DNA from: an uncultured Gammaproteobacteria bacterium
GTDB taxonomy: Bacteria; Pseudomonadota; Gammaproteobacteria; DRLM01
Assembly: GCA_963810615.1 (NCBI GenBank)
Contig: CAWEOA010000002.1
Location: forward strand, 654,515-718,514
DNA length: 64,000 bases
Reading direction: 5' to 3'
Of the stretch, positions 6,597-35,962 are shown one piece after another (position 1 is the stretch's first letter; every line of letters begins with the position of its first letter). The notes under the pieces were generated by a model, which was given only the letters and a program-made list of their open reading frames with translations, made no database searches and was not told the origin of the DNA. The translations under genes and the position numbers were made by a program.

Positions 6597-6634
6597 GCCC
6601 AGGCTACTCGTTGTCGTTATCGTTCACTGAGAAT

Positions 6635-7093
6635 TCACATCATCAAGCGCCCGCCGCCGGCCATGACGACCACCATCAATCCGATGATCAGATTGATCCC
6701 GACCATGCGTCGGATCTGCGCCAGCTGCTTGCCGCCCGCCTCCCAGTCCTGCTCGCTCACCGCCCGCTTCAGTCGGCGAAACGGCGCGAAAAATATATGG
6801 CCGAAGATCGCCATCATGATCAAGCCCATGGCCTGCATGAGATGCACAAATATAGGCGTGTTGGCCATGGAGCCGAACATACCGAACATCATAGGATAGC
6901 CGGTCAACAACAAACTGATCACGGCAAACCACACCCAGGGGAAAAATCCGGTGAATACCCGCGCCCACAGGGTAAGGCGCTGCGGCGGTTCCAGTGTTGC
7001 CGCCGCCATCGGCCGCAACACCATATAGGCGAAGAACATACCGCCCACCCACACCGTCGCCGCCAATAGATGCAACATCAAGGCGATTGCCAT
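6635..7093 (-). CDS. small integral membrane protein (CopD-like), about 4 TM helices
   Basis: The 152-aa product has four hydrophobic helices. The family assignment is from memory only. Confidence 0.5.
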   Translation of the reverse strand: MAIALMLHLLAATVWVGGMFFAYMVLRPMAAATLEPPQRLTLWARVFTGFFPWVWFAVISLLLTGYPMMFGMFGSMANTPIFVHLMQAMGLIMMAIFGHIFFAPFRRLKRAVSEQDWEAGGKQLAQIRRMVGINLIIGLMVVVMAGGGRLMM

Positions 7094-11330: not shown

Positions 11331-12284
11331 ATGGGATTGCTGGTCAATGGTCAATGGCAGGACGCCTGGTATCCCACCGAAAAGACCGGCGGCCGCTTCG
11401 TCCGTCAGGAGAGCAGCTTCCGCAACTGGGTGACCGCGGACGGCTCCTCCGGCTACCTGGCGGAGCCGGGGCGCTATCATCTCTACGTGTCGCTGGCCTG
11501 CCCCTGGGCGCACCGCACCCTGATCTTTCGCAAGCTGAAAGGACTGGAAGACAGCATTTCCCTATCGATCGTCGATCCCTATATGGGTCCCCAAGGCTGG
11601 GCCTTCAGCGACTACCCCGGCTGCATCGCCGACACGGTCAACGGCTGCGACTACCTGCACCAGCTCTACACCAAGGTCCAGGCCGATTACACCGGCCGGG
11701 TCACGGTACCGGTATTGTTCGACAAACACAGCCAAACTATCGTCAATAATGAATCGTCCGAGATCATCCGCATGCTCAATGACGCCTTCGGCGGCGCCGG
11801 ACCGGATTTCTTTCCCGCCGAATTGGAAGACGAGATGAATGCCGTCAATGCCGAGGTCTACGCCGGCATCAATAACGGCGCCTATAAGGTGGGCTTCGCC
11901 ACCCGTCAGGCCGCCTATGAAGACGCATTCGACGCATTGTTCGCCGCCCTGGATAAGCTTGAGGAGCGGCTGTCACGGCAACGTTATCTGCTGGGCGGGC
12001 GCCTCACCGCCGCTGATTGGCGGCTGTTCACCACCCTGGTGCGCTTCGACGCCGTGTATTACGGGCACTTCAAATGTAATCTGCGGCGGCTGGTGGATTA
12101 CCCGAATCTATGGGACTACCTGCGCGAGCTCTATCAAATACCGGGCGTAGCGGAGACGGTGAATATGGATCACATCAAGACCCACTACTACCGCAGCCAC
12201 ACCACCATCAATCCCATCGGTATCGTGCCCAAGGGACCCTTGCTGGACTTCACGCTGCCCCATACCCGGCAAGGCCTGTCATGA
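11331..12284 (+). CDS. yqjG: glutathionyl-hydroquinone reductase (Xi-class glutathione S-transferase) YqjG
   Basis: The N-terminus MGLLVNGQWQDAWY...FRNWVTADGSSG...YHLYVSLACPWAHRTLIFRKLKGLE matches E. coli YqjG almost residue for residue. An AAAGGA SD precedes the ATG at 11331. Confidence 0.9.
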   Translation: MGLLVNGQWQDAWYPTEKTGGRFVRQESSFRNWVTADGSSGYLAEPGRYHLYVSLACPWAHRTLIFRKLKGLEDSISLSIVDPYMGPQGWAFSDYPGCIADTVNGCDYLHQLYTKVQADYTGRVTVPVLFDKHSQTIVNNESSEIIRMLNDAFGGAGPDFFPAELEDEMNAVNAEVYAGINNGAYKVGFATRQAAYEDAFDALFAALDKLEERLSRQRYLLGGRLTAADWRLFTTLVRFDAVYYGHFKCNLRRLVDYPNLWDYLRELYQIPGVAETVNMDHIKTHYYRSHTTINPIGIVPKGPLLDFTLPHTRQGLS

Positions 12285-13853
12285 CGGTCGCTTGCCGGCG
12301 AGGGCCTGTTTGAGCGGTTCCAGATAGTCCGCGTAATCCCGCCACCACCCCACCGCTGCGCTTTGCTTGAGCTGACTTGGCTGCCGTAGACCTGCGCCGG
12401 CGGAAAGCTGTTTGCCCTTGTATAACTCCACGCAGCGTTTGTTCCACTTAAGACCGCAAAACTCCACCATGGCCCGGGTGAGTTTCCTGGGGTCGCGCAC
12501 CAGGTCTTCGTAATGCACTTCGAGGATCGGTATATCGAGAACCTCACCCCAATGGATCATCAGTCCTTGATACTGACGATAATATGCCCCCAAATCAGCC
12601 AAGGCATGTGCATAAGGATGATCATCGCCGCTCTCTTGGAAATAACATGCCAGGCAGGTATCCAAGGGATCGCGCAGGCAGTGAATCACCCGCGCCATGG
12701 GAAACAGCAAGGCGATGATCCCCAGATACAGGAAATTTTGCGGCAAGGTATCGATGACCCGCTTGCTTTCGGGAAGGCGCTGCTCCAGTAGATCGAGATG
12801 GGGCTGGGCCCAGCCATCGCATTGTTCACGGCTGAGCTGGGTAATGTCGTTGCGCGGCGATGTTTGCGCCAGCGCTTCTTGAAATTCCATCGCCAAGCGG
12901 CCCATATCCGAGAACTCGCCCAGTGTCGCCATCTCTGGATGCATGGTCAGGATCTGCTCAACCAGGGCGCCCCCGGCGTGCGGCATGCCGACAATGAAGA
13001 TCAGTCGTTCCGAACAATTGCCGGCCCGCGGCGCACGCAACATAGCCTCGTGGTTGAAGGTCTGCATCACCTCGCCGATCCGGGACTGCCATTGCCGAGC
13101 GTCGAACTGCGCCGGAACGAGTCGCTGGCCAGCCTCAAAGTGGGGGAAGGCCTGGGCGAACTCGCCGCGTCCGTCATGGAGTCCTCCCAGGCGGAAATGG
13201 ATTTGGGCACGGCGCTCCGCCGCCAGATCGTCCTTGGCCAATAAGCCTTCCAGAAACGCGCGCGCCTCATCGTAACGCCCTTGGTCGATGCGCACCCCGG
13301 CCAGATCATAATAGGCCTCCGTCAGATCGGGATCACGTTTGAGAACCTGCTCCAGGGCGGCGGCGGCCTCGTCGAGATCGCCCAGTTGCTGCAAGACTCC
13401 ACCCAAAGATAGATAGGCGGCGACGCGTGATGGATTGAGCTGAATGGCCTGATGATAGTGGCTGAGCGCGGCGCGCGGATCGCCGCGCAATTGTGCGAGT
13501 CGCCCCAAGGCGTCGTAAGCCTCGGCCGAATCCGCCTTCAATGTCAGCGCCTGGCGATAGCACTCTTCGGCCTCGGCGAGTTTGGCCTGTAACTCCAAGG
13601 CATGGCCGAGATTGAGATACGCCTGGGCCGCGCCCGGTTGCAGGCTCACCGCCTTGCGCAAGGCGTTCTCCGCCTCGACGACACGGCCTAAACGACCATA
13701 AAGGGTGCCTGCCATGAAGCAGGACTCGGCATCCTGAGGCGCGAGTTCACAGAGCTTTTCAAAAAGGACTAGGGCCTCGCCGATGCGCTTGGCCTGGACG
13801 CAGGCAAACGCATGACGTTTCTTTGCCCGGATGAGGACCTGGTCTTTATTCAT
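12279..13853 (-). CDS. TPR-repeat protein with C-terminal sulfotransferase domain (paralog 1)
   Basis: The N-terminal half is TPR units (AxxYxxLGxxxxxxGxxxEA). The C-terminal half has the sulfotransferase 5'-PSB-like motif IFIVGMPHAGGALVEQIL and an RDP...YFQ motif. The start could be 13853 or 13931. Confidence 0.75.
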   Translation of the reverse strand: MNKDQVLIRAKKRHAFACVQAKRIGEALVLFEKLCELAPQDAESCFMAGTLYGRLGRVVEAENALRKAVSLQPGAAQAYLNLGHALELQAKLAEAEECYRQALTLKADSAEAYDALGRLAQLRGDPRAALSHYHQAIQLNPSRVAAYLSLGGVLQQLGDLDEAAAALEQVLKRDPDLTEAYYDLAGVRIDQGRYDEARAFLEGLLAKDDLAAERRAQIHFRLGGLHDGRGEFAQAFPHFEAGQRLVPAQFDARQWQSRIGEVMQTFNHEAMLRAPRAGNCSERLIFIVGMPHAGGALVEQILTMHPEMATLGEFSDMGRLAMEFQEALAQTSPRNDITQLSREQCDGWAQPHLDLLEQRLPESKRVIDTLPQNFLYLGIIALLFPMARVIHCLRDPLDTCLACYFQESGDDHPYAHALADLGAYYRQYQGLMIHWGEVLDIPILEVHYEDLVRDPRKLTRAMVEFCGLKWNKRCVELYKGKQLSAGAGLRQPSQLKQSAAVGWWRDYADYLEPLKQALAGKRPS

Positions 13854-14027
13854 GAAATGATCGCCGCCGTCTTCCCTTACTTGTGCAAATAGCTTGCACA
13901 ACAAGGGTTTTCGGCTTATCCGGGGATTCACTAAAGCCGACCCGGCGACGATTCAATCGTGACGCACTGCCAACACCTTGGCGCAGACCGCAATTATCCT
14001 GTTTCGCCCGGAAATGAGCGCTCGGCA

Positions 14028-15797
14028 TCAGGCGCCGGTGAGGGCCTTTTTGAGCGGTTCGAGATGATCCGCGTAATGCCGCCAACGGCCCATCGAACCG
14101 GAATAGATGGGCCGGCGCACCTGCCGAAAACTTGCGGTAGTAACGGAGCGCGCGCTTTTATGAAATTCCAAGCAGTGCTTGTCCCATTTGAGACCGCAAA
14201 ATTCCACCATTGCCCGGCCCAGCTTCTCCGAGTCACGCACTAAGTCTTCATAGCACAGTTCGAAGATGGGGATATCCAGGACTTTGCGCCAATGGCGCAT
14301 CAGACGCTGGTATTGGCGATAATACGCCCCCAGGTTGGCCAAATCGTAGGCATAAGGATGATCACCGGTGAACATCTGAAAATAGCATGACAGACAGGTG
14401 TCCAAGGGATCGCGCATGCAATGGATTACCCGTGCACCGGGAAATAGCAGGGCGATCCATCCCAAATGCAAAAAATTCTGCGGCATTTTATCTATCACCC
14501 GCAAGGCATTAGGGTATCTGCCGCCCAGCAGATCGAGATAACGCTGCGCCAAACTATTGCGTTGCTCGCGGCTCAACTGGGTGATGTCTTTGGCGGGAGA
14601 TGTGTGCTCAAGCAACTCCTGTAACCGGTCGGCCAGTAGGCTGATGTCCACCAGTTCGCCCGCCGCCGCCACCTCGGGATACATGGAAAGGATTTGTTCC
14701 ACCAAAGTGGTCCCTGAGCGCGGCATCCCCACAATAAAGATCGGTCTCTCCGAGCGGTTGTCCGCCCGCGGCGCACGCATCACGGCATCGTGACTGAACA
14801 TGTCAATCAAGTTGGTAATCCTGTCTTGCCATGCCCCGGCATCGAACGTCGCCGGAATAAGCTGGTTACCGGCCCGATAATGCGCAAAGGCCTGGGCATA
14901 CTCGCCGCGCTTGTCATAGAGCTGCCCCAAATTGAAATAGATTTGGGTGCGATGCTTGTCCGACAGGCCGTCCTTGGCCAACAAGCTTTCCAGGCGCGCA
15001 ATCGCCCCGTCATAATCCTTGGTGAAATGAGTCAGGCTCGCATAGACCAGGGCCACTTCCGGATAGTCTTGATAACGATCCAACACCGGCCTCAGACTCT
15101 CCAAGGCGGCTGGATAATCGCAAAGATGCTCCAGGATATAGGCCTCCACGGCCGTGGCTTCTACGTAATCCGGTTTGAGCTGTAAAACCCTGCGGATGTC
15201 GTGCAGGGCGTCTTCGTATAAGCCTTGGCCGATGCGCACTCCGGCAAGGTCATAGTGCGCACCGACATTATCCGGATCAAGGCGCAAGGCCTGGCCGATG
15301 CTATCGGCCGCCGCGTCATAGGCACACATGTGAATGCAGGCCTTGGCCCGGGAAAGGTGTGCCGTGAGCAGCGGCGGATTCAACTGGATAGCCTTTTCAT
15401 AATGGGCGATAGCGGCTTGCAGATCACCACCTTGCTGGCTGAGTCGCCCCAGAGAAGCATGGGCATCGGCCAAATCCGCTTTCAATGCCACTGCGCGCCG
15501 AAAGCATTCCTCGGCTTCGGCGAGCCGGCCCTGCAGCTCCAGGGTTTGACCGAGATTGAGATAGGCCGCGGCGGAGTCGGGCTGCAGGCCCACCGTCTTG
15601 CGCAAGGCGGCCTCCGCCTCGGCGATGCGGCCCATCCGCCCGTAAAGCGTACCCGCCATAAACCAGGACTCGGCATCCGACGGATCGATTTCGCAAATCT
15701 TCTGATACAGATGGAGGGCCTCACCGATACGATCGGCCTGCGCGCAGGCGAAGGCTTGGCGCTTTTTTGCTCGGGTAAGGGCGTTTTTCTTACTCAT
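14028..15797 (-). CDS. TPR-repeat protein with C-terminal sulfotransferase domain (paralog 2)
   Basis: It has the same architecture as the neighbour (IFIVGMPRSGTTLVEQIL; RDPLDTCLSCYFQ). The two are roughly 50-60 % identical by eye and are arranged head to tail. Confidence 0.75.
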   Translation of the reverse strand: MSKKNALTRAKKRQAFACAQADRIGEALHLYQKICEIDPSDAESWFMAGTLYGRMGRIAEAEAALRKTVGLQPDSAAAYLNLGQTLELQGRLAEAEECFRRAVALKADLADAHASLGRLSQQGGDLQAAIAHYEKAIQLNPPLLTAHLSRAKACIHMCAYDAAADSIGQALRLDPDNVGAHYDLAGVRIGQGLYEDALHDIRRVLQLKPDYVEATAVEAYILEHLCDYPAALESLRPVLDRYQDYPEVALVYASLTHFTKDYDGAIARLESLLAKDGLSDKHRTQIYFNLGQLYDKRGEYAQAFAHYRAGNQLIPATFDAGAWQDRITNLIDMFSHDAVMRAPRADNRSERPIFIVGMPRSGTTLVEQILSMYPEVAAAGELVDISLLADRLQELLEHTSPAKDITQLSREQRNSLAQRYLDLLGGRYPNALRVIDKMPQNFLHLGWIALLFPGARVIHCMRDPLDTCLSCYFQMFTGDHPYAYDLANLGAYYRQYQRLMRHWRKVLDIPIFELCYEDLVRDSEKLGRAMVEFCGLKWDKHCLEFHKSARSVTTASFRQVRRPIYSGSMGRWRHYADHLEPLKKALTGA

Positions 15798-15901
15798 TTT
15801 ATGATTCTCTGCCGCTGTCAAAATCCCCGCAGTAAATACACGCTCTTCAGCAATCTTCGGCTGCACTGCTCATAGATGAAGCTACCCGCTCAGGGAAACG
15901 C

Positions 15902-25366: not shown

Positions 25367-26146
25367 ATGAAGAACCAGCACGATGAATTGTGTGAACTGG
25401 GTTGGAACGACTGGTTCGATCAACGGGCAGCATGCAAACCAACAGATACTGTCGCACGCGTTGCGGCTGTCGACCGCGACCAGTTACTACTCGTGGATCA
25501 AGCCGGTCATTTTCGAGCAAAACTGTCGGGTAGCTATTTGCACCACCATCACGATTCACATGAACTACCCTGCGTGGGTGACTGGGTGTGCGTGGAGAGA
25601 CAACTCGGTGACGACTTTGGGATGATCCACACGCTCCTTGATCGCAGGACTTCGCTGCGTAGAAAGTCGGCTGGAAACAGCATCGAGCACCAAATGATCG
25701 CGGCAAACCTCGACTATGTGGTGATCGTTCAGTCATGCCAATTCGATTTCAATCTGAATCGCTTGGAACGCTATCTCGTCATGGTGTTGGATGGCGGGGC
25801 GGAGCCGTACATTTTGCTAACCAAGACAGACCTCGTCGATTTTACCGTGCTGGCCTCACAGTTGGCTGAGATAGCTTCCGCCGGTATCACCGCACCGATT
25901 TTGCCGCTAAGCAACGTCACTCATGATGGGCTGGATAATCTCAAGAGACTGCTATTACCAGGAAAAACCTATTGCTTTGTCGGTTCATCCGGGGTTGGCA
26001 AGAGCACGCTAATAAACCAGTTGATTGGCCACCAAAGGTTGGAAATAGGTGTAGTCAGTGGGACGGGAGAAGGACGGCACACGACAGTTCGACGAGAGCT
26101 GATTCGTCTCGACGGGGGCGCACTGGTCATCATTCGTACGAACTAG
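25367..26146 (+). CDS. RsgA/YjeQ-like circularly permuted GTPase, truncated at the G3 motif and lacking the C-terminal zinc-finger domain (possible pseudogene)
   Basis: It aligns with RsgA through the OB fold, the G4 block (LLTKTDL), G1 GSSGVGKSTLIN and G2 GRHTT. Where RsgA has VIDSPG the ORF reads VIIRTN-stop, and no continuation exists in any frame. No SD precedes the ATG. Confidence 0.65.
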   Translation: MKNQHDELCELGWNDWFDQRAACKPTDTVARVAAVDRDQLLLVDQAGHFRAKLSGSYLHHHHDSHELPCVGDWVCVERQLGDDFGMIHTLLDRRTSLRRKSAGNSIEHQMIAANLDYVVIVQSCQFDFNLNRLERYLVMVLDGGAEPYILLTKTDLVDFTVLASQLAEIASAGITAPILPLSNVTHDGLDNLKRLLLPGKTYCFVGSSGVGKSTLINQLIGHQRLEIGVVSGTGEGRHTTVRRELIRLDGGALVIIRTN

Positions 26147-26161
26147 CATGATGAGATTCAT

Positions 26162-26935
26162 ATGAACACAGCGCTCTTCTTCACCACATGGCTCGCGGGT
26201 CTTCCTGGGGTTATTGTAGTAGCGTGGTTCGTGTTACCGATTCTCGTCGCGGATCGCCACCTCTCTGCACCGCTTTGGGTTGTACAGGTAGGAAGCGCAT
26301 TGCAAAGCGCTGTGCTGCTCGGGCTCGCAACAGCGGCAGGCACAGCATTGGCTCCCAAAGTCGGTCTTGCGGCTCCGGTATTTTCAGCCCTTATACAACA
26401 CAAGCATGCTATTGAAACACTTCGCCCACAATTGTTACCCAGTCTTGTCGGTGGCCTTGTAGGTGCCACGATTTTGTGGGTGTCGACTGCTGTTGCTCCG
26501 AAAGCCTTAGCAGAGGCCCAAACCAGGTTCTCCATGCCGATCGTCGCACGCCTACTCTATGGAGGCATCACGGAAGAGTTGTTGATTCGCTGGGGGGGCA
26601 TGACGCTGCTTGTTTGGCTTCTGTGGCATCTTGGACAGGGGGGTGCAGCCTCGCCTTCTGCCATCAGCGTATATTTAGCCATTTGTCTCAGCTCGCTACT
26701 GTTTGGTGCTGGTCACTTACCGGCTGTAGCGTCTATGGTTGGTCACATATCAGTTGGCATTGCCATATACGTCATCGCCGCAAATGCGGCATTTGGCATT
26801 GTTGCAGGCTGGCTGTATTGGCGATTTGGACTTGAGTCGGCAATACTAGCGCACATACTTGCTCATGGAGTCTTTCTCTTGGTTTCTCGGCGAGGAGGCA
26901 TCGCTAACGGTTCCAGTAAACGGTCGGCATGCTAA
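26162..26935 (+). CDS. CPBP-family (CAAX protease/Abi, PF02517-type) intramembrane metalloprotease
   Basis: It is a polytopic membrane protein with the three CPBP motifs: EExxxR (ITEELLIRWGG), FxxxH (LLFGAGHLPA) and HxxxN/H (AHILAHGVF). Confidence 0.8.
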   Translation: MNTALFFTTWLAGLPGVIVVAWFVLPILVADRHLSAPLWVVQVGSALQSAVLLGLATAAGTALAPKVGLAAPVFSALIQHKHAIETLRPQLLPSLVGGLVGATILWVSTAVAPKALAEAQTRFSMPIVARLLYGGITEELLIRWGGMTLLVWLLWHLGQGGAASPSAISVYLAICLSSLLFGAGHLPAVASMVGHISVGIAIYVIAANAAFGIVAGWLYWRFGLESAILAHILAHGVFLLVSRRGGIANGSSKRSAC

Positions 26936-26971
26936 CCCGCCGCCCCTATTATATCTGAGCATTGAACGCCC

Positions 26972-27056
26972 GCTTCTGGCCGCATTCGGAAGTAGGCGCG
27001 GTGCAACGCGAACTGGCACTTTCGACCCGAAGCGGACGTTCAGTAATACAATGTCC
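26972..27056 (+). repeat. ~85-nt conserved non-coding element, copy 1 (downstream of the CPBP gene)
   Basis: It is about 75 % identical to copy 2 by manual alignment, sharing the blocks gcttctggccg, ggaag.aggc, cgcgaactggc, tcgacccg and gcgg.cgt. Confidence 0.7.
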
Positions 27057-27362
27057 GAGCTGATGAATCTGGGCACTGGAGTAATGGGATTTCCTTGCAT
27101 AAGCCAGAGAGACGGTCTTCAGAATCAAAGCAGCCCTTTGAAAATAGAGGCTCAATTACATCCGCTTTGTAAAAAGCGATAACCCTAAATACATCATTAA
27201 TTTTGTCGGTAATTTTTACAAGTCAGAGAATGGGGGAAATATGTCTTGTATTATCTAATTGATAAAGAATATTAAAATATTTATGGCATTTAATTTGCCT
27301 TTTTATATTAAAAATTATAAGGGGGTTCTGATAACCACACAACGGAAGGGGAGGGAGCTTTT

Positions 27363-27974
27363 ATGAAAGCATACAAATTCAGCATGCGAGCATTATGCAT
27401 ATCCATAATAGCGAGTTTGCAATTGCTTGGACTTTCGCAAGAGGCAGCTGCAAGTATTATCGTCCAACTCGATAGCGTTGCGCCAGATTTAGTATTTCCT
27501 GGCAATTACCGATGGACATTCTCGGCCATAGCCTCATCAACCGATGGGTTCGGCTCATCAGTAGATAACTACTTCACCATCTATGATCTTCCCGGTTCTA
27601 TTACCACTGTTGAAGCCAGTGCCGTATATTGGGGCAGTGCATCCAGCGCTTTGACGGGAGTCACCCCAGTGGGACTGACTCCGGCTGATGATCCAAGTAA
27701 GCCTAATGTTACATTTAGATATATGGACTCTAGCGATCGTCCCGGAAACGCGGCATTTCAAGCCGGCGATCATTTCGATATCATTTTGTCAGATGGGATT
27801 CCTATCGATCTCCAGTATTCGTGGCAGGATTACAGCGCCTATCCAATTGTAAATAATCCACTGCAGAGTGGTCTGGGCACAGTTCAAAACAGCGTACCTG
27901 AGCCTGCAACTATCGGTTTAATAGGTCTCGGTTTAGCCGGATTGGGAATCAGCCGTCGAAAACGCGTCAACTAG
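27363..27974 (+). CDS. PEP-CTERM sorting-domain protein (exosortase substrate)
   Basis: It has a signal peptide and a C-terminal VPEP-ATIGLIGLGLAGLGI-SRRKR tripartite PEP-CTERM motif. A strong AGGGGAGGGAG SD precedes the start. Confidence 0.85.
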   Translation: MKAYKFSMRALCISIIASLQLLGLSQEAAASIIVQLDSVAPDLVFPGNYRWTFSAIASSTDGFGSSVDNYFTIYDLPGSITTVEASAVYWGSASSALTGVTPVGLTPADDPSKPNVTFRYMDSSDRPGNAAFQAGDHFDIILSDGIPIDLQYSWQDYSAYPIVNNPLQSGLGTVQNSVPEPATIGLIGLGLAGLGISRRKRVN

Positions 27975-27996
27975 ACGAATCCGTTATCGTGTAAGC

Positions 27997-28025
27997 AAAC
28001 CCCGCTTCGGCGGGGTTTTATTTTC
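27997..28025 (+). terminator. rho-independent terminator
   Basis: aaaccccgc-ttcg-gcggggttt is a perfect stem-loop followed by TTATTTT, and it lies 22 nt after the PEP-CTERM stop. Confidence 0.8.
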
Positions 28026-28072
28026 GTGAATCACGAGTCAAAGTGCAGCTGTGTAGTAGTGTGTAAAAGGCT

Positions 28073-28157
28073 GCTTCTGGCCGATGACGGAAGAAGGCAC
28101 AGCTAACCGCGAACTGGCGCTATCGACCCGCTGCGGGCGTCCGGTCAACATGAGCCA
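28073..28157 (+). repeat. ~85-nt conserved non-coding element, copy 2 (downstream of the PEP-CTERM gene and its terminator)
   Basis: See copy 1. The orientation is the same. Confidence 0.7.
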
Positions 28158-28372
28158 CCTGGCCAATAAGTTTCCTCCAAAACACCCAAATCTTACGGCA
28201 TCACGACTAATATGGGGTTAGACACTCCCGCCTGCTCCCTCGGTACACTCAACATCTGCAACAAATCAAACAGTGGACGATAACCTTTCAACATCAGAAT
28301 CCTCAACAATCACAACATACATGCGATGTGGAGGCGAAGGTTGCAAATACTGCACGGGAGGTTAGAACACTT

Positions 28373-28528
28373 ATGGACCTACACGAATCATTGTGTGAAA
28401 TATTAATTGCTGAAAAGATGGAGGAGAATCCACGGTTAACAAAGAAGGCTGCGGCTGAAATGGTTAATCGCGAGTTAAAAGAACAAGCGGCAGAAAATGA
28501 TGATATTTTCAGGTGTAGTGGCGATTAA
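28373..28528 (+). CDS. small hypothetical protein (51 aa)
   Basis: The ATG is preceded by GGGAGG, and the product is charged and helical (MDLHESLCEILIAEKMEENPRLTKK...). There is no homology support. Confidence 0.25.
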   Translation: MDLHESLCEILIAEKMEENPRLTKKAAAEMVNRELKEQAAENDDIFRCSGD

Positions 28529-28819
28529 CATTATATCGGGGCACATAAAAACATAGGAGTCATGCGCTGGAACCCGGTGCTGGCCAATTTTTATTTAAAA
28601 TCGTGATAATTTAATTATCTCGTTCTATATCAGTGGCCTTATGATTTAGAGGTCCACTTTCAGAGCGGACGTTCTTTCGGATTCGATACCATTCGGCAAA
28701 AGATATGGCAGCTCAATGTCTTGGGTATAACGCTTGTAAAGCAAGGTGGAAAACAGTGCTGAACATGCCATACTTTATAAAAAGATACTAAATTAGTGTG
28801 ATGCTGGGGAGGCAGTGTT

Positions 28820-29242
28820 ATGCCATACATCGTAGCTCAACATCCAAAGTTGGATGTGGTGGAACTTAAGCTCACCGGATTGATTACCGGAGTTGACTTA
28901 AGGAAAGCAACGTCCGAATGCATCGCAATACAGAAGCAGAATGGAATAAAGAGGTTTCTAGTTGATGCGAACGAGGGGGAAGTGGTCGCATCATTCAATG
29001 AGCTTTTCGAAATAGTAAGTGAGCAATATCACATTGAAGGACTCGATAAGAACAGTCGCATTGCGGTGATGCTTCCAACTACTTTAAGTGCAAAAGCCGC
29101 TGCAGATTTCTACGAAGCCGTATGCTTAAAAGGTGGGTGGAATGCACTGGTGTTTCCAAGCAATGAAAGCGCACTAGATTGGTTGATGGATACCGCTGAC
29201 ACAAGCAAGTCAACTGATAACGGGCCTCTTCACCGGTCCTAA
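28820..29242 (+). CDS. SpoIIAA-like/STAS-fold protein (DUF3478-type), paralog A
   Basis: A GGGGAGG SD precedes the start. The pattern LKLTG.ITG....EAT..CIA.QKQ...RFLVD..E.E..ASF...........RIAV.LPTT........FYE.V...GW.A.VF......A.DWL matches, as far as I recall, the SpoIIAA-like family consensus (RVLVDL.DFEGW ... RVAVVGD ... VRYF ... A..WL). Confidence 0.6.
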   Translation: MPYIVAQHPKLDVVELKLTGLITGVDLRKATSECIAIQKQNGIKRFLVDANEGEVVASFNELFEIVSEQYHIEGLDKNSRIAVMLPTTLSAKAAADFYEAVCLKGGWNALVFPSNESALDWLMDTADTSKSTDNGPLHRS

Positions 29243-29368
29243 AACGACCCAAAGCGGCAACGTCAATTTCTTGCGCTTCAGCGAATTAAGAAACACGGAA
29301 AACGGTGCGGCGCATGTCATACTTTAATAAAGCATATTAGCTTGCTGAGATATTGGAGGAAGTCGACT

Positions 29369-29773
29369 ATGCCATATACCATAACGTATGATCCTGAGTC
29401 AGATATCGTCAACCTGGCATTCACCGGGGAAATTACTGGGATAGTGATATCGGAAGCAACGTCTAAATGTATCGCCCTTCAGAAGCAGTCGCGTGCATTG
29501 CGCTTTCTAGTCGAAGTAAATGGGTGGGAAGTTGTCGCGTCATTCGTTGATATTTACAAACTTATTTACGATCAATACGCGGCAGAAGCAGCACATCGTC
29601 TATCCCGTATTGCTGTTGTACTTCCAACTACGGCAAGCGGACAAACTGCTGCAACCTTCTACGAAACTGTAAGCCAAAATGCTGGTTGGAAAGCACAGGT
29701 ATTTGCAAGCCGTAAAAATGCAATTGATTGGCTAACGACTAGCGAAAATATCAATGTCGTTGCTGCAGATTAG
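29369..29773 (+). CDS. SpoIIAA-like/STAS-fold protein (DUF3478-type), paralog B
   Basis: A GGAGGAAG SD precedes the start. It is about 45 % identical to paralog A, and both have upstream regions containing catactttaataaa. Confidence 0.6.
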   Translation: MPYTITYDPESDIVNLAFTGEITGIVISEATSKCIALQKQSRALRFLVEVNGWEVVASFVDIYKLIYDQYAAEAAHRLSRIAVVLPTTASGQTAATFYETVSQNAGWKAQVFASRKNAIDWLTTSENINVVAAD

Positions 29774-29858
29774 CGTATTTATCCAACGTAGCTCACTCAG
29801 CAGAACATCCAATTCTCGCGACACGGTAAGGTCACCTTCCCCACTCGTATGACCGCTT

Positions 29859-30236
29859 CTGGCCGGCAAGCGACCGATCGGCGCGGTCGTTCCCGGGTTG
29901 TGATGGTCTTAAACTTCAGTTTTCTCAGACATTTCCAGGGCGTCGTCAACCTCGATCCCAAGATATCTGACCGTGCTTTCCAGCTTTGTGTGCCCAAGCA
30001 GCAGCTGAACAGCTCGAAGATTCTTTGTTCTCCGGTAGATCAATGTTGCTTTTGTACGACGCAGGGTGTGTGTTCCATACTCCCCAGGATCCAGCCCAGC
30101 GAGAGCCACCCACTTTTTCACAATACGAGCGTATTGCCGCGTAGAAATATGTAGAGACTCCCTTAGCCGGCTAGGGAAAAGGAACTGACCCGAAGTGAGC
30201 TGTGCCTTGGCAATCCATGCCTCAACAGCCTCGCGC
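29859..30236. repeat. direct repeat copy 1 (3' portion of the recombinase gene), ~95 % identical to 32045-32422
   Basis: Manual alignment of the two stretches shows near-identity over about 380 nt, with a few substitutions and one 4-nt indel. Confidence 0.85.
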
Positions 30237-30544
30237 GTCTGGTCGGTCAACTCAAACTTCACCGGCTGTGCGGTCTTTTGCTGCATGACGGTCGTCCGTG
30301 ATATTGCCTTGCCGCTGTGTGCCACATCCCTCACTTGAAGCTTGACGATATCGCAGCCCCGAAGCTTGCTGTCGATTGCCAGGTTGAAAAGGGCAAGGTC
30401 TCTGATGCGTCTGGCCAATTGCAGTCGAATTCGGATTGCCCAGATCTCGCGAAGCTTCAATGGCGGCTTCGGCCCGATCAACCGATCCTTATTCCAAGGG
30501 ATGTGGGCGGCTGTGGCGGCTGTATTGTCTTGATTGATGTACAT
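29909..30544 (-). CDS. tyrosine-type site-specific recombinase/integrase (short form, catalytic domain)
   Basis: The C-terminal HTLRRTKATLIYRRT...LLLGHTKLESTVRYLGI carries the R...HxxR...Y catalytic signature of phage-integrase-family recombinases. A GGAGG SD lies 9 nt before the ATG at 30544. Confidence 0.8.
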   Translation of the reverse strand: MYINQDNTAATAAHIPWNKDRLIGPKPPLKLREIWAIRIRLQLARRIRDLALFNLAIDSKLRGCDIVKLQVRDVAHSGKAISRTTVMQQKTAQPVKFELTDQTREAVEAWIAKAQLTSGQFLFPSRLRESLHISTRQYARIVKKWVALAGLDPGEYGTHTLRRTKATLIYRRTKNLRAVQLLLGHTKLESTVRYLGIEVDDALEMSEKTEV

Positions 30545-30599
30545 GGTGTGTTTCCTCCATTCTGACTAGGGAAACACAAGTTTGGTTGATCGCAGCAGG

Positions 30600-30642
30600 T
30601 GGCGCTTGCCGACCCTTAGCCGACGTGGGCGTGAGTGTCAGC
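30600..30642 (+). repeat. partial third copy (3' half) of the ~85-nt element, about 55 nt upstream of the recombinase start codon
   Basis: tggcgcttgccgaccc..gccgacgtgggcgt aligns with tggcgctatcgaccc..gctgcgggcgt in copy 2. Confidence 0.5.
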
Positions 30643-30939
30643 TTTGAATAGATCCATGCAGAAAAGGGCCGCGGCGAGGTCTAGTCCGGGAGGATGATCC
30701 AAAATCGTGTCGAAATCTTTTACAATCAGACTGTCGCCGCCCCCAGATCAACCACAGGCCGGCTTGTAACAAACTGAAAACTTAAGTGCCTTTCATTCAC
30801 GGCACATAAATTGCTGCCATCAAGAACGGCCAGAGTGACGGCGTGGGGGGCACTCCGATATAAAAACGCGAATAAGGAGCGTCCGCGATGGCTTCGTTTA
30901 ATATGCACGAGCCATAAACATTCACATTGAGGAGACACC

Positions 30940-31806
30940 ATGAGACTTTCCGCCTGGCCCTGGCTCGGGATCCTGGCTGCCGCCATCACGATTGGCGCGG
31001 CGTCGGAGGCACGGGCGACACCGACCTATTGGAACCTATTCAACATCGAGGGTGAGAACAGCCTCAGCGCGGGTTTCATTACCTACGCCAGCCAGATTGA
31101 CATGCTGTTCGACATCAATCGGACGGGCTTCTATCAACCGAATGGCTACGGAGCGGGCCAGAACGTCGTCGGCACCGGATCGGACGGAACGACCTACTGG
31201 AACCTATTCAACATCGAGGGTGAGAACAGCGCTTTGGCAGGCTTCATCACCTATGACTCGCAGTTCGACATGCTGTTCGACATCAACCGGACGGGCTTCT
31301 ACCAGCCGAACTTCCACGGGGCGGCCCAGAACGTCGTCGGCAGCGGGTCGGACGGAACGACCTACTGGAACCTGTTCAACTTCGAGGGCGAGAGCACGTC
31401 CAACGCGGTCTACGTTACCTATGACAGCCTGATCGACATGCTGTTCGACAACAACCGGACGGGCTCCTTCATCCCGGACGGTTACGGGGCAGCCCAGAAC
31501 GTCGTCGGCAGCGGGTCGGACGGAACGACCTACTGGAACCTATTCAACATCGAGGGTGAGAACAGCCTCAGCGCGGGTTTCATTACCTACGCCACGCTGA
31601 TCGACATGCTGAACGACACTAACCGAGTGGTGTTCGCCCAGCCGAATGGCTACGCGGCGGGCCAGAACGTCGTCGGCAGCGGCGCGACCGTGATGGCCAT
31701 AACGGGGCCGGGGCCTGTGACCACCGTTCCCGAGCCGGAGACGCTATGGTTGCTGGGGCTGGGGCTGGTCGCTCTCAGCTTTCAGGCGAGGCACCGCGTG
31801 CGCTGA
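30940..31806 (+). CDS. PEP-CTERM protein with four 57-aa tandem repeats
   Basis: It has a signal peptide, four repeats starting TYWNLFNIEGENS...QNVVGSGSDGT, and a C-terminal VPEPETLWLLGLGLVAL-SFQARHRVR motif. A GAGGAGA SD precedes the start. Confidence 0.85.
   Translation: MRLSAWPWLGILAAAITIGAASEARATPTYWNLFNIEGENSLSAGFITYASQIDMLFDINRTGFYQPNGYGAGQNVVGTGSDGTTYWNLFNIEGENSALAGFITYDSQFDMLFDINRTGFYQPNFHGAAQNVVGSGSDGTTYWNLFNFEGESTSNAVYVTYDSLIDMLFDNNRTGSFIPDGYGAAQNVVGSGSDGTTYWNLFNIEGENSLSAGFITYATLIDMLNDTNRVVFAQPNGYAAGQNVVGSGATVMAITGPGPVTTVPEPETLWLLGLGLVALSFQARHRVR
31024..31704 (+). repeat. four in-frame 171-nt tandem repeats inside the PEP-CTERM gene
   Basis: Repeats 1 and 4 are identical at the nucleotide level over more than 60 nt (acctattggaacctattcaacatcgagggtgagaacagcctcagcgcgggtttcattacctacgcc). 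Confidence 0.9.
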
Positions 31807-32044
31807 AAAAATCCGGGTCAGATCACAGTTCTTTCTAATATAGATATACATCACTGAGCCAACTCCACAAGAAGATGGATAATGGCATGCAAACCCCGTT
31901 TTGCTCCACCGTGTATACCTCAACACATCATCCAGCGCGGAAATAACCGCGATGCATGCTTTTACGCAGATCAAGACCTTCAGTTCAAGCTAGACTACTT
32001 AAAAAAGCGGACAGTCAGCCTCAAGTAAAGAACGGCTCGTATTG

Positions 32045-32440
32045 GCCGGCAAGCGACCGATCGGCGCGGCCGTTCCCAGACCGTGGTGGCCTTAACCTTC
32101 AGCTTGCTCAGACATTTCCAGGGCGTCGTTAACCTCGACCCCAAGATATCTGACAGTGCTTTCCGGCTTTGTGTGCCCAAGCAGCAGCTGAACAGCTCGA
32201 AGATTCCTTGTTCGCGGGTAGATCAACGTTGCTTTTGTACGATTCAGGCTGTGTGTTCCATCCTCCCCAGGATCCAGCCAGCCCAGCGAGAGCCACCCAC
32301 TTTTTCACAATACGAGCGTATTGCCGCGTAGAAATATGTAGAGACTCCCTTAGTCGGCTCGGGAAAAGGAGCTGACCTGAAGTGAGCTGTTCTTTAGCAA
32401 TCCATGCCTTAATAGCCTTTCGTGTCTGGGTGGACATTCA
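32045..32440 (-). pseudogene. frameshifted 3' fragment of a second recombinase gene (duplicate of 29859-30236)
   Basis: It encodes ...AIKAWIAKEQLTSGQLLFPSRLRESLHISTRQYARIVKKWVALAGL and then shifts frame at a ccagcc duplication. It has no N-terminal part and no start. Confidence 0.75.
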
Positions 32441-32492
32441 ACGTACAAATTGGGCGCTGCGCGCTATTGAGCAGCCCCTCTCTAATGGAGGG

Positions 32493-32720
32493 TTATGCCG
32501 GGATTACTTCATTACAGACTACACCAGTCTCTTTGTTTTCGATTCGACTTTTAAACTTGTCATCCAAAGACGGGGCAGCAAGTCTCCCGATTAGCACATA
32601 GTCATTTTGCGTAACAGCCTTGGCGCTGGGGAACAAAAGAGGAGACGCAATTGCGATGGCTGCAAGTATGCAAATGACGATAACGACGAATAACGGAACA
32701 GCACGATTCGATAGCTTCAT
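32493..32720 (-). CDS. small exported or membrane hypothetical protein (75 aa)
   Basis: A GGAGG SD lies 8 nt before the ATG, and the N-terminus is a hydrophobic signal/TM segment. Confidence 0.4.
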   Translation of the reverse strand: MKLSNRAVPLFVVIVICILAAIAIASPLLFPSAKAVTQNDYVLIGRLAAPSLDDKFKSRIENKETGVVCNEVIPA

Positions 32721-33816
32721 TTAAATAACCTCCAACTTAAATAAAACAACGATAGTCACTCGATGTTTGTGAATGGGCATAACAGGCAACAGGCGGGCGC
32801 TCAGCATGCGCCGCAATTGATTAATATGCAATGGTATTGGTGCGCCGGCGTCAGTATATAAATCACAACAGTGCTGATATTGCCTGCAGGCTAGGGCTCG
32901 GAAGCGACAGTTCGCTACTGGCCGGGGGTGAACTTTTGAATGACCGCTATCATACAGCAGGAAAGATCAATAGAAACATAGAGTCTCTACGTTTCACCGC
33001 GATGCTCAGCGAAGCCATCCCATGGTTCGACACATGAGAGTCACACATTCATACGTGAGTAGCCGATAAGTGCTAAGCTGCTATTAACGTAAACGCAGGG
33101 GAAAATGTTATATCAACCGAAGAACAACGTGAGGCAGAGGCTGCGTCCCTTGAGCAGGAACGCCTAGCCTTCAATAGAACACATACTGCATGGATCGCCG
33201 TTCAAAATCAGTTTACACCCTTTGGTAATGGACAGCCTACTCAGGACAGCATTGATCAATACTATGCTGCCGAAATTGATTGGGAAGTAGCCCAAGCAAA
33301 AGTGAAGCGTTTCGGCATCGAAACAAGGAGTGATGCATGATAATAAAGCCTACCCGAAACGACGTACACGGAGCCGCCGCCATACTGATAAAGGTAAAAG
33401 GGGCTCCCGCACTTATGAAAGTGCTCGGCACATACGGTGCCGTCCGTACCGGCCAAATTCAGATGCGCGACTGGCCTCGATTTATCACAGATTGTCAGAA
33501 AGTGGAAACTGCATAGCTATCGTTTATCTGTCCAGCCTTTTCGGATCCAAGTTGATCAATGCGAATTTGTCCACTTGAAAATTGGACACTCAGTTCACCT
33601 AGAGCAATGTCGGGTATTGGCCGACACTTGCCTTGACCGATAGGCAGGCGCGACGGGATATCAATACTGAGGACTGACAATATTCGATAACTACGGTTGT
33701 TTCAGCGTGATGCAGATGCCCAACATATTAGTTAGCGGTCGCGGCTATGAGAGACGACAGAATTAGCACGGAAGAATCATGAGCACGACGCCCTCAATTA
33801 CGATAACAGGTCGTTA

Positions 33817-34287
33817 CTACCAGGCATGGATGTAATTAAGTGAGACCTGCATAGGCTCGAAAGGAGCCTGGATGTTGTAAATGGCGCCGTGATAGTAACT
33901 ATCCAGCGTCACATTGAGCGACAACCTTCCCGTATTGGTATTTGTATCCGCTCCCGTGGAAGCCTCGCTGAAATTAGCATTCCCGCCGGACACGGACCTG
34001 TCCGAGGTTTGCCATCCAGCATTCACGCCACGTACGCCAGACGCGAGTTGTGACGGACGGACCTCGATGCCACTCTGCCGTCCGGCATTGCGCGTAGTTG
34101 CCTGAGAAGACAGGACGGCGGGATCACAGCGGGAGAAGATCGCAGTGCACAGAAGGAGAGTGGCGCTCTGCGACCCAGATACCGCTCGCGGCGCAACCGC
34201 CCCTTCAGCGCGGCATCCAACTGAGGCACCCATTCCAAAAACAACGAGAGACAAGTTTAAGATTAAAACGCGCCTCTGACAGGACAT
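33817..34287 (-). CDS. secreted hypothetical protein (156 aa)
   Basis: An AAAAGGAG SD lies 7 nt before the ATG. The product has a signal peptide, a Ser/Gly/Asn/Thr-rich mature region and a C-terminal aromatic residue. Confidence 0.55.
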   Translation of the reverse strand: MSCQRRVLILNLSLVVFGMGASVGCRAEGAVAPRAVSGSQSATLLLCTAIFSRCDPAVLSSQATTRNAGRQSGIEVRPSQLASGVRGVNAGWQTSDRSVSGGNANFSEASTGADTNTNTGRLSLNVTLDSYYHGAIYNIQAPFEPMQVSLNYIHAW

Positions 34288-34915
34288 CTGGAAACTCCTT
34301 TTTAGCTGGCTGCTGGCTGCGATTAACTGACTATTGTACGCTTTTTTTAAATACCAACAAAAGGTTAGACAACAATTTCGTCAAAAATATCCCTGCGAAT
34401 AGGAGGCCACCCCAAACGAGGAGTGGATAGTTCTTTCGCAAACTTCAGCTTTGGAGGCAACATACAAAAGTCAGATATCAAAAATTCAACAAATTGCGCA
34501 CCTTCCAATTCTTGATAAAGTAAGTCATCAATAGGCCTATATATTGTCGCGAACTCGGAGCTAAACAGCTTAATTAGTTGGCTTTCAATTTAGACAGGGC
34601 AAGGCGCTCAAAGAGCATGAATCCGCTTAGCTCGTCAGGGAAGTGGGCTCTCAGCCCTGTCTAATCAAGTGACTGATTGAACTCGCAGCCGATGCGAGAC
34701 ATTCCAACAGCTGCACTTCGGTATAGATAATGACAGAGAAATTAGGCACGACCAGTGGCTACACTTAACGCGCTCGTTTCGCTCTCATGGGCATAATATG
34801 CAGTGTGATATAAATGAAAAAAACTCAACAGAGAAGGAAATCGACAACCGTGTTACGTGGTTTAAACTTATGTAGGGATGAATGATCCGTTACACATGGC
34901 GCGCTAAGCACCTAC

Positions 34916-35962
34916 TTAGCAGATACGCGGCAAGGGATCGCTGCTCAACCAGTCCACCAGGCGGTTGCCGCCGAAGGCGGTCTCCATCTCCACAAATCGA
35001 TGCTCGTCGGCGCGCACCTCGCCGATGATGACGGCATCCTTACCCAAGGGGTGATGGCGCATCACCGCCACCAGATCGTCGGCACATTGGGGCGGACACA
35101 CGGCCACCAGCTTGCCTTCGTTGGCAATGTATAAAGGGTCGAGGCCGAGGAATTCGCAGGCAGCGCTCACCGCGGGACGGACCGGGATGTCGCGCTCGCG
35201 GATGATCATCCCTACGCCGGACTGGCGCGCCCATTCATTGAGCACCGCGGCCAGGCCGCCGCGGGTGGGATCGCGTAGACAATGGATGTCCGGCGCCACC
35301 TCAATCATAGCCGCCACCAGTTCGTGCAAGGCCGCGCTGTCGGACCGCAATTCGGTCTCAAACTGCAGGTGTTCCCGCTGCGAGAGGATGGCCACGCCGT
35401 GGTCGCCGATGCTGCCGCTGAGGATGATGCGATCACCCGATCGCGCGCGGTCGGCGCCAATATTCACGTCGGACGGCACGCTGCCCACGCCGGTAGTGGT
35501 AATGAACACCCCATCGCCCTTGCCGCGCTCCACCACCTTGGTATCGCCGGTGACCACGACCACATCGGCGGCGCGCGCCGCCGCCGCCATGGAATCGACG
35601 ATGCGCCGCAAGTCCGTCAGGGGGAAGCCTTCTTCGATGATGAAGCTCGCCGACAGATACAGCGGCCGCGCCCCGGCCATAGCGATGTCGTTGACAGTGC
35701 CGTGCACCGCCAGGCTGCCGATGTCGCCGCCGGGAAAGAACAGCGGCGACACCACGAAGCTGTCTGTGGTGAGTACCAGGCGCCCGGGCGGCGGTTCGAA
35801 GGCCGCCTGATCGTTCATCGCGCGCAGCCAATCGTTGTCGAAGGCGGCGACGAATAATTCCTCGATCAGTTGCGCCGTGGCGCGCCCGCCGCTGCCGTGA
35901 CCGAGCTCAACGCGGCCATGGGCGAAATCCAGGGGTGGAAAATAATCTTTATTCTTGCTCAT
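34916..35962 (-). CDS. hypE: hydrogenase maturation protein HypE (carbamoyl dehydratase)
   Basis: It has an AIR-synthase-related fold and the conserved C-terminal PRIC with the catalytic Cys as the last residue. Confidence 0.9.
   Translation of the reverse strand: MSKNKDYFPPLDFAHGRVELGHGSGGRATAQLIEELFVAAFDNDWLRAMNDQAAFEPPPGRLVLTTDSFVVSPLFFPGGDIGSLAVHGTVNDIAMAGARPLYLSASFIIEEGFPLTDLRRIVDSMAAAARAADVVVVTGDTKVVERGKGDGVFITTTGVGSVPSDVNIGADRARSGDRIILSGSIGDHGVAILSQREHLQFETELRSDSAALHELVAAMIEVAPDIHCLRDPTRGGLAAVLNEWARQSGVGMIIRERDIPVRPAVSAACEFLGLDPLYIANEGKLVAVCPPQCADDLVAVMRHHPLGKDAVIIGEVRADEHRFVEMETAFGGNRLVDWLSSDPLPRIC

Follow-up and report, generated by a model that had tools for sequence, protein, structure and literature searches.

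Two small adjacent genes of the same orientation, here called A and B, lie in a low-GC island of a 64,000-nucleotide (nt) stretch of DNA from an uncultured Gammaproteobacteria bacterium (contig CAWEOA010000002.1, positions 654,515 to 718,514 of the forward strand). This whole stretch is the window of our analysis and all coordinates are counted within it (Table 1); loci and proteins used for comparison carry L and P numbers. The genes encode proteins of 140 and 134 amino acids (aa), and a gene for a 211-aa tyrosine recombinase on the opposite strand lies 136 nt 3' of gene B. For gene B we take the ATG at 29369 as the start, where the mechanical list of open reading frames (ORFs) gives TTG at 29342. 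GGAGG ribosome-binding sites are found at 28808–28812 for A (8–12 nt 5' of the ATG) and at 29355–29359 for B (10–14 nt 5' of the ATG), which agrees with an earlier note on this DNA, made from the letters alone, that described two paralogues of 134–140 aa, each with a strong Shine-Dalgarno sequence. Its estimate of about 45% identity likewise fits the 46% measured over the full alignment; BLASTP finds 61 of 122 positions identical (50%, E 1e-44). The GC content of the A/B region is 44–47% against roughly 50–65% in the flanks, and A has a GC content at third codon positions (GC3) of 0.45 and B one of 0.36, compared with 0.72–0.81 for hypD, hypE and the asparaginase gene. Low GC3, the recombinase next door and the recurrence of the segment in another context bear out the island location that the note had assigned to the pair. 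Both genes are under purifying selection, with ratios of nonsynonymous to synonymous divergence (dN/dS) of 0.14–0.20 for B against four orthologues and of 0.40 for A against its orthologue in L057.

Table 1. Features of the island, in window coordinates, with the evidence for each
Feature	Position	Strand	Evidence
Gene A, 140-aa stand-alone STAS-fold protein, clade with P0023	28820..29242	+	ORF; PF11964, 18.5 bits; AlphaFold (AF2) model
Gene B, 134-aa stand-alone STAS-fold protein, clade with P0002–P0012	29369..29773	+	ORF; PF11964, 27.4 bits
Promoter-like block of A: TGGAAA 28747–28752, 16-nt spacer ending TGc, CATACT 28769–28774	28747..28774	+	kept in L057–L059
Promoter-like block of B: CGGAAA 29296–29301, 16-nt spacer, CATACT 29318–29323	29296..29323	+	kept in L052, L064, L004, L007
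Mobile module with orf51, A and B (1.74 kb)	28122..29865	+	98.2% identical to L067 1877–3620, 97.7% to L066
Small ORF inside the module (orf51), 51 aa from ATG (66 aa from GTG 28328), status uncertain	28373..28528	+	called in L002, L066, L067
Left end of the module: CGACCCGCTGCGGGCGTCCGGT, inverted imperfect copy of the right-end core	28124..28145	+	L066/L067 homology begins 2 nt before
Left end of the B unit, between A and B: CGACCCAAAGCGGCAACGTCAATTTC	29245..29270	+	L052 homology begins 29243; motif scan
Candidate recombinase core site, imperfect dyad GACCGCTTC-TGGCCGG-CAAGCGACC; core GCTTCTGGCCG 29855–29865	29851..29875	.	right boundary of the module
Tyrosine recombinase, 211 aa: catalytic domain, short N-terminus only	29909..30544	-	PF00589, 76.6 bits; phrog_216 integrase, E 4e-34
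Truncated second recombinase copy (remnant 32098–32437) with degenerate core TTGGCCGGCAAGCGACC at 32040	32040..32437	-	repeats D2/D3
Junction with the upstream PEP-CTERM module: core GCTTCTGGCCG 28073–28083, about 38 nt variable spacer	28066..28121	+	repeat D5; core scan
Junction element R1 after the CPBP protease gene: core 26972–26982, inverted arm 27023–27038	26959..27044	+	repeats; core scan; motif scan

We are confident that A and B have the STAS fold and belong with the PF11964 family (SpoIIAA-like, formerly DUF3478), both of which the earlier note had proposed. PF11964 is the sole meaningful Pfam match of the two proteins, and both align across the whole model (B residues 13–122 to model positions 1–105 of 106); the other Pfam matches of B at E ≤ 1, DUF7793 (E 0.05) and DUF1604 (E 0.1), are at chance level. 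Within a set of 40 subfamily members, 26 match PF11964 at E ≤ 0.01 and the only other Pfam family is DUF7793, seen in two of them. No meaningful match for A or B was found in NCBIfam, PADLOC or PHROGs, nor in a search of PDB sequences (by profile; B alone), while a viral structure library returned giant-virus unknowns only and protein B has no match in 72,556 plasmids. AlphaFold (AF2) models built on the 40-sequence alignment have a mean predicted local distance difference test score (pLDDT) of 91.2 for B, with a predicted template modelling score (pTM) of 0.84, and a pLDDT of 89.1 for A. Both show the β-β-α-β-α-β-α-β-α order of the STAS topology (strands 3–8, 13–18, 45–49, 80–84 and 108–112; helices 24–41, 59–72/73, 89–104 and 115–123), and structural search returned STAS, RsbS, SpoIIAA and DUF3478 (2q3l, 2ook) as the closest matches. 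Neither protein has a signal peptide or hydrophobic segment visible by eye, both are predicted to be cytoplasmic, and they carry no catalytic signature.

An exhaustive profile search found 1,434 clusters of relatives at E ≤ 1e-3 and 345 at E ≤ 1e-10; the best 150 of the 1,434 are nearly all stand-alone proteins of 123–140 aa. One protein of 278 aa (P0048) holds two copies of the domain, and since such a fused double domain exists, action as a dimer is probable. Our genome scan found relatives in uncultured metagenome-assembled genomes only, from Nitrospiraceae, Desulfobacterota, Gammaproteobacteria, Planctomycetota, Melioribacteraceae, Smithella, Anaerolinea and one Thermoplasmatota archaeon. 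Across 189 aligned sequences the best conserved positions are G20, L47, D61, Y70, A82, P86, F112, R115, A118, W121 and L122; conservation is concentrated in helices α2 and α3 and in the C-terminal A..WL, and the hallmark of the subfamily is F97-Y98-E99-T-x-C102-x-N104-R105-G106-W107 (FYExxCxNRGW) in α3. The DUF3478 structures have a second cluster, Ala88/Phe114/Ala120/Trp123/Leu124 (PMC2954212), of which the β4 Ala, the β5 Phe and the α4 A..WL have positional matches in A82 (98% conserved), F112 (80%), A118 (98%), W121 (97%) and L122 (97%). Their 'switch-region', formed by His6, Gly7, G-x-L-T-H, Tyr34 and A-A-W-D-D (PMC2954212), is not kept when compared by position and topology, not by residue-level structural alignment: the subfamily has G20-x-I-T-G without His, and A-S-F-V-D. 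A and B belong to a distinct subfamily at the edge of PF11964, whether as peripheral members or as close relatives. Only one context seen for the family resembles an operon: within a catabolic cluster of L012 (6778–8827), a more distant member of 127 aa (P0032) shares a tight run of co-directional genes with two unknowns, of 300 and 98 aa, and with a 4HBT thioesterase. Such company could point to an acyl or thioester compound as ligand.

The genes A and B travel together with a small ORF, orf51, in a module of 1.74 kb. It is found again at 97.7–98.4% identity and with other flanks in L066, L067 and L068, contigs of a related but distinct organism, where it stands behind a different, 404-aa PEP-CTERM gene; the other island segments common to both organisms are only 80–90% identical. 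In L067 and L068 the homology runs up to 29865; in L052 it stops at 29864 and gives way to 980 nt of unrelated sequence. The right breakpoint is the end of the 11-nt core. Exact copies of the core also lie at 26972 and 28073, a one-mismatch copy at 32914, a degenerate copy at 32040 and three one-mismatch matches outside the island; the core scan gave 7 matches in total against 2.2 expected, and no shuffle got to 7. B-like genes in five contexts have TGGCCG about 55–90 nt past the stop, followed by different sequences. On the left, breakpoints lie 2 nt ahead of CGACCC...GCGG, at 28122 in L066/L067 and at 29243 in L052, and this motif is an inverted imperfect copy of CCGCTTCkGGyCG. Both left ends match the core, inverted, at 10 of 15 positions; terminal inverted matches of 10–11 out of 15 occur in four units, each with P = 7e-4 for random island 15-mers to reach at least 10. 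The module thus recurs in other surroundings, and between the same boundaries. As to orf51, it has no match in Pfam, NCBIfam, PADLOC or PHROGs and is not in the A-like context of L057. We also noticed a conserved TCGCGACA, holding the palindrome TCGCGA, in the 3' untranslated region of B-like genes, at 29816–29825 here and about 25–45 nt past the stop, before the core, in L052, L064 and L004; it could serve as an accessory site or belong to a terminator.

How the two paralogues came to adjoin is answered by their relatives, which contradict the local tandem duplication, regulatory region included, that the earlier note had assumed. A is 70% identical to P0023 and B 87% identical to P0002, and the two share only 46–50% with each other; they fall into different clades of a neighbour-joining tree, and their synonymous divergence (dS) is about 1.1. 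A-like genes stand alone in L057–L062 and B-like genes alone in L052, L064, L004–L006 and L007–L009, and these single orthologues bear the same upstream block as A and B. Because the clades differ and the orthologues are single with the same block, the duplication must be old and the adjacency secondary. Only a left end sits between A and B, with no right-end core 3' of gene A, which argues for two former units now joined. Tandem pairs of family members are rare elsewhere, with one case in L010/L011: at L010 8001–9075 a very divergent paralogue of 129 aa (E 7e-10 against the profile of the family) comes after a member of 126 aa. IS3-family transposase genes flank that pair and no core motif turned up beside it, so its mobile context is of a different kind. 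L010 is from the same ENA sample as L001, the sister contig of our window; several divergent paralogues occur in one sample.

About 75 nt 5' of A and of B align with each other and hold a common block, (T/C)GGAAA-N16-CATACT. The earlier note had claimed the same upstream string for both genes; the regions do align, but the exact catactttaataaa precedes B only, A reading catactttataaaa. In five further, unrelated contexts the block has been kept 5' of orthologues although the sequence on either side has diverged, and for this reason its conservation is beyond chance. Across seven sequences GGA-A, TG-CATACTT and their spacing are invariant, and the 5' untranslated regions are clade-specific. We read the block as a putative sigma-70-type promoter with an extended −10 element (TGGAAA, 16 nt, TGc, CATACT). 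The block of A fits 8 of 12 sigma-70 consensus positions plus the TG, which is why a sigma-70 scan with a threshold of 9/12 missed it. No terminator-like site was found between A and B. The third clade (L010, L053, L063) has a different, clearer promoter, TTGAG-N17-TGTGnnATAAT. Two other readings of the region were rejected: a sigma-54 promoter at TGGAAAACGGTGC, whose GG-to-GC spacing is 2 nt short and whose GC is not kept in L007 or L064, and a conserved inverted repeat or operator around CATACTTT..AAAG.AT, whose spacing and sequence vary among orthologues. Inside the block, at 28766–28792 and 29315–29341 and also in L052, L057 and L007, ATG(C/T)CATACTTT echoes the first codons of the main genes (ATGCCATAC/T, for M-P-Y). 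It opens mini-ORFs that read MPYFIKRY, MSYFNKAY, MPYFNKAY, MPYFYKVY and MPYFN, each up to a stop codon; no ribosome-binding site precedes the mini-ORF, and in L064 it stays open. It may act as a leader peptide, or may be there only by coincidence with the −10 element.

The right boundary of the module coincides with an imperfect dyad that ends 33 nt from the stop codon of the recombinase, on its 3' side. The recombinase family is very large and remarkably uniform: at least 7,991 clusters score E ≤ 1e-40, and the closest 120 listed are 70–91% identical and mostly 208–211 aa long. They come from Beta- and Gammaproteobacteria, Zetaproteobacteria (Mariprofundus), Methylomirabilis and Acidoferrales, and Salinisphaera is also among the named sources. 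Plasmids of Pseudomonas, Cupriavidus (pMOL30), Paraburkholderia, Thauera, Achromobacter and Methylomonas carry homologues of about 70% identity, annotated only as 'tyrosine-type recombinase/integrase', and the annotation of the whole family is likewise generic. After the stop of the Achromobacter homologue stands an identical 25 nt, CGGTCGCTTGCCGGCCAGAAGCGGT, and variants of the site follow the recombinase stop in pMOL30, pPUV-1, the Thauera plasmid and L081/L082; site and recombinase are thus associated well beyond our window. Three cores in one orientation delimit multi-gene segments in L081, an inverted core pair surrounds a 102-aa ORF in pPUV-1, and in L079–L082, as in the window, the genes past the recombinase stop are convergent with it. 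Since the dyad follows the stop of this recombinase and of homologues elsewhere, the family likely moves the modules. No paper was found that contains the core sequence in a relevant context. Most contigs of the recombinase family (L069–L082) are short, as is to be expected of a repeated and mobile gene.

The 211-aa gene and its remnant are the only tyrosine recombinases in the window. The 3' part of the recombinase gene is present twice together with its site: the second copy (32043–32436; repeats D2 and D3) is 88–91% identical to 29860–30249 and covers residues 99–210 in tblastn with the recombinase (int). In L001 this sequence lies at 10492–10878. L001, which is 99.5–100% identical to the window, lacks 2.18 kb between the copies (the 5' part of the recombinase and the second PEP-CTERM gene), so that only the truncated copy is left there; the difference looks like either a deletion between direct repeats or the insertion of a recombinase-plus-cargo unit. 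A weak tblastn match of int at 12344–12547 was dismissed as a recombinase, as it lies in a 550-aa ORF of another kind. That ORF and an adjacent one of 612 aa (12279–15866, minus strand), in the core-GC part of the window, are paralogous over their full length; by eye both seem to have TPR repeats and then a sulfotransferase-like C-terminal part, and they represent a tandem duplication.

The A-B module is a member of an array located in low-GC DNA between rsgA/CPBP and hypE. Repeats of about 80 nt at 26965–27044 and 28066–28145 are junctions of this array, because the breakpoints fall at their parts: each is composed of the right end of one module, a spacer of about 40 nt and the left end of the next. 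As single-stranded DNA the junction element R1 forms a long imperfect hairpin (z −2.9 on either strand), and it has no match in 72,556 plasmids. In L057 the PEP-CTERM module that precedes ours is inverted relative to the A-like gene, and homology ends at 28084, just past the core at 28073–28083. Co-occurrence with PEP-CTERM genes, for which the earlier note suggested a search, is therefore real in the sense that such genes reside in the same array, but it amounts to no functional pairing, as the PEP-CTERM modules are bounded separately and L057 has one of them in inverted position. L001 has an extra junction after rsgA, lost in the window, which makes the CPBP protease gene a module too. A stretch of 497 bp that L001 has (6260–6758), with the rsgA 3' end (about 100 codons) and a complete junction (core at L001 6640), is missing from the window at 26127–26130, where the alignments on either side share 4 nt; the rsgA ORF of the window therefore ends early, at 26146.

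Some further features of the array deserve mention. The junction motif GACCCGAAGCGGACG (27023–27040 and other junction elements) translates as D-P-K-R-T; peptides like DPKRT and GKADI presumably recur in spurious 'hypothetical proteins' of many proteobacteria, in which case related repeats may be widespread. The second PEP-CTERM gene (30940–31806) encodes a 288-aa protein with tandem repeats of a 168-nt (56-aa) period at 31022–31657, about 80% identical, with units TYWNLFNIEGEN...DMLFDINRTGFYQPNGYGAGQNVVGSGSDGT, and has a GC3 of 0.85, unlike the rest of the island. After the first PEP-CTERM gene lies a strong terminator-like hairpin at 27997–28018 (CCCCGCTTCGGCGGGG, then T-rich). A search of 26500–35000 against Rfam found no RNA family, the only trace being a partial match to RsmY at this hairpin, below threshold (E 0.19), and the hairpin is best read as a plain terminator.

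We propose that A and B are old paralogues, separately promoted, that now stand side by side as the cargo of a module. Modules of the array end in CCGCTTCTGGCCG and start with its inverted imperfect copy (CGACCC...GCGG); the right end, the inverted left end and the same site at the recombinase stop are all seen here. The 211-aa recombinase family would insert, excise or invert such modules, taking the dyad as its core site, and the module ends would be products of recombination. We regard this link between module and recombinase as reasonably probable. A and B themselves would act without catalysis as binding or switch modules, probably as dimers, with a small ligand or partner protein held on the α2/α3 face (D61, Y70, E73, F97-Y98-E99, C102 and N104-R105-G106-W107). 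A STAS-type binding mechanism of this kind, with a small ligand or with a partner encoded elsewhere, has more in its favour than other roles for the proteins, but we put it at well below even odds. Taken as a whole, the explanation of A and B as separately promoted STAS genes with a binding or switch role, carried by a recombinase-linked module, seems to us slightly better than an even bet.

Several observations weigh against it. The PF11964 gathering score is 25, which B exceeds and A fails to reach, and the hallmark of the subfamily is broken in both proteins, B having S102 and A105 and A having K104 and G105. The left end of the module is a half site only, with no full core upstream in L066/L067. 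Four of nine plasmid homologues of the recombinase have no clear site after the stop in that orientation, and two of these four carry the core flipped. L001 retains the A-B module despite its truncated recombinase, so mobility is not needed for the module to persist. The module comparisons rest on metagenome contigs, and no circular or inverted intermediate was seen. Finally, Ser58 (A-S-F) directly precedes helix α2 (59–72) in the models of both proteins, and a kinase encoded elsewhere may act on it.

This serine would fit partner-switching anti-sigma-factor antagonists of the SpoIIAA/RsbV kind, with Ser58 phosphorylated by a kinase/phosphatase system encoded elsewhere. The STAS fold, with SpoIIAA and RsbS among the best structural matches, is what one would expect of such proteins, and as the SpoIIAA phospho-serine sits just before helix α2 (PMC2954212), the topology of the models would place Ser58 at the corresponding position, which is occupied by Ser in 62% and by Thr in 9% of the 189 family members (71% together). 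About 29% of them, however, have P, G or A in its place, A and B lack the DSSG motif, and the anti-sigma-antagonist STAS models of Pfam are unmatched at E ≤ 1, with nothing relevant in NCBIfam. No kinase or phosphatase (HATPase_c, PP2C) lies within ±10 kb of the genes, and none is among the 25 most frequent Pfam families of 145 neighbours at 41 related loci, where the top families reach 3 hits (RRM_1, GNAT). BLAST clustering of 857 neighbouring ORFs from these 41 loci yielded no recurrent neighbour across distinct lineages; clusters are shared only between close relatives. A and B seem not to take part in any phospho-relay of the SpoIIAA type encoded nearby, and we consider a partner-switching role improbable. 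The earlier note was right that no partner kinase or phosphatase is nearby; its statement that the proteins are not the phosphorylatable DSSG antagonists is correct for the motif, but given the place of Ser58 the proteins may still be phosphorylated. More plausible, while still unlikely, is that A and B are carriers of small non-polar molecules, or membrane-associated, with α2/α3 as a lid over a hydrophobic cavity. This idea overlaps our own explanation and draws on the PF11964 matches, the structural likeness to 2q3l and 2ook and the agreement of A82, F112, A118, W121 and L122 with the DUF3478 cluster by position. Yet the residues of the DUF3478 switch-region (His6, GxLTH, Tyr34, AAWDD) are replaced by the polar hallmark FYExxCxNRGW, and the carrier role of DUF3478 is itself merely a proposal from the crystal structures (PMC2954212).

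Read from context rather than fold, A and B would be orphan proteins of an immunity or antitoxin-like kind, kept in a defence array that is linked to a recombinase and would be the proteobacterial counterpart of the rAID-1 clusters of Bacteroidales. Low-GC cargo, a recombinase, repeats and a motif 3' of its stop are shared with those clusters, the cargo genes appear to have their own promoters, and divergent paralogues occur in one sample. The CPBP/Abi-type protease, a family often linked to self-immunity, is another cassette of the array. Against this, A and B match no immunity family of Pfam and nothing in PADLOC, no toxin gene is nearby, the neighbours of distant members are housekeeping or miscellaneous genes, and the cargo is convergent where that of rAID-1 is co-directional. 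This role has hardly better prospects than partner switching. Least credible of all, to the point of being highly improbable, is a recent in-situ tandem duplication of gene and promoter: the genes are adjacent and co-oriented and their coding and upstream regions align, but A is nearer to P0023 and B to P0002 than either is to the other, they fall into different clades, their dS is about 1.1, the orthologues are single with clade-specific 5' untranslated regions, and a module end lies between the genes.

The subfamily to which A and B belong is new and well defined by FYExxCxNRGW, is spread over many phyla within a large family known before, and lends itself, being compact and modelled with confidence, to screens for ligands or partners. 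The relationship of recombinase, site and modules is more novel than the proteins, and its context yields module boundaries to the base pair, a candidate 25-bp recombination site and a candidate enzyme. If the proposal is true, a common unnamed 211-aa recombinase, present on pMOL30 and Pseudomonas megaplasmids, gains a function and its cargo a way to be found. It is possible, although we would not count on it, that the array represents an undescribed and very widespread cassette system, in which a minimal, highly conserved 211-aa recombinase moves, inverts or stacks small self-promoted modules bounded by inverted CCGCTTC-TGGCCGG-CAAGCG. Such a system would follow an integron- or pdif-like logic with an enzyme and a site of its own, the STAS genes would be typical cargo, and the cargo might be defence- or immunity-like.

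Among known proteins, A and B share with PF11964/DUF3478 (2q3l and 2ook, from Shewanella) the stand-alone STAS domain of about 125 aa and the C-terminal A..WL cluster. They differ in the switch-region residues and in the start of helix α2, where most DUF3478 proteins have Asp/Glu and the subfamily has Ser (PMC2954212). With SpoIIAA, RsbV and RsbS they have in common the fold, the topology and a Ser at the N-terminus of helix α2, whereas the match to the hidden Markov models and the DSSG motif are missing, as is an adjacent kinase or phosphatase, both here and in the 41 related loci; A and B are not members of the SpoIIAA/RsbV antagonists.

Turning to the array, the rAID-1 clusters of Bacteroidales combine low-GC cargo and repetitive intergenic DNA with a conserved tyrosine recombinase whose stop codon has a motif on its 3' side, and are defined by at least two co-directional low-GC genes, a recombinase more than 44% identical to a Bacteroides XerD-like protein and immunity-homologous cargo (bioRxiv 10.1101/471110). 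The same four traits would, by analogy, link our array to rAID-1, while the phylum and the recombinase are different, the cargo is convergent and no immunity gene was recognised in it. Integron cassettes and clusters of attC sites lacking an integrase (CALINs) are also of low GC, with mostly co-oriented small cargo and structured repeats of about 80 nt, and R1 alone resembles attC in its long imperfect hairpin and AAC...GTT ends. An attC reading of the array was nevertheless rejected: only R1 fits, since R2 and the other junctions are without the hairpin and the R''(RYYYAAC)/R'(GTTRRRY) ends, there is no IntI and the breakpoints are not at R'. IntI is missing from the window, the 211-aa recombinase has no IntI-specific insert and scores 29 bits with the integron-integrase model against a cut-off of 265, the crossover here would lie at the 5' core and not at the 3' G|TT, and the cargo appears to have promoters of its own. 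The pdif modules of Acinetobacter plasmids use dif-like 11-6-11 sites of XerC/XerD and the Xer system of the host. They are likewise small modules with inversely oriented arm-spacer-arm sites, reshuffled between replicons, but the site here has a 9-7-9 layout (CCGCTTC-TGGCCGG-CAAGCG) and lies beside a dedicated small recombinase. The array is thus a member of none of these systems, and resembles integrons and CALINs, rAID-1 and pdif modules alike.

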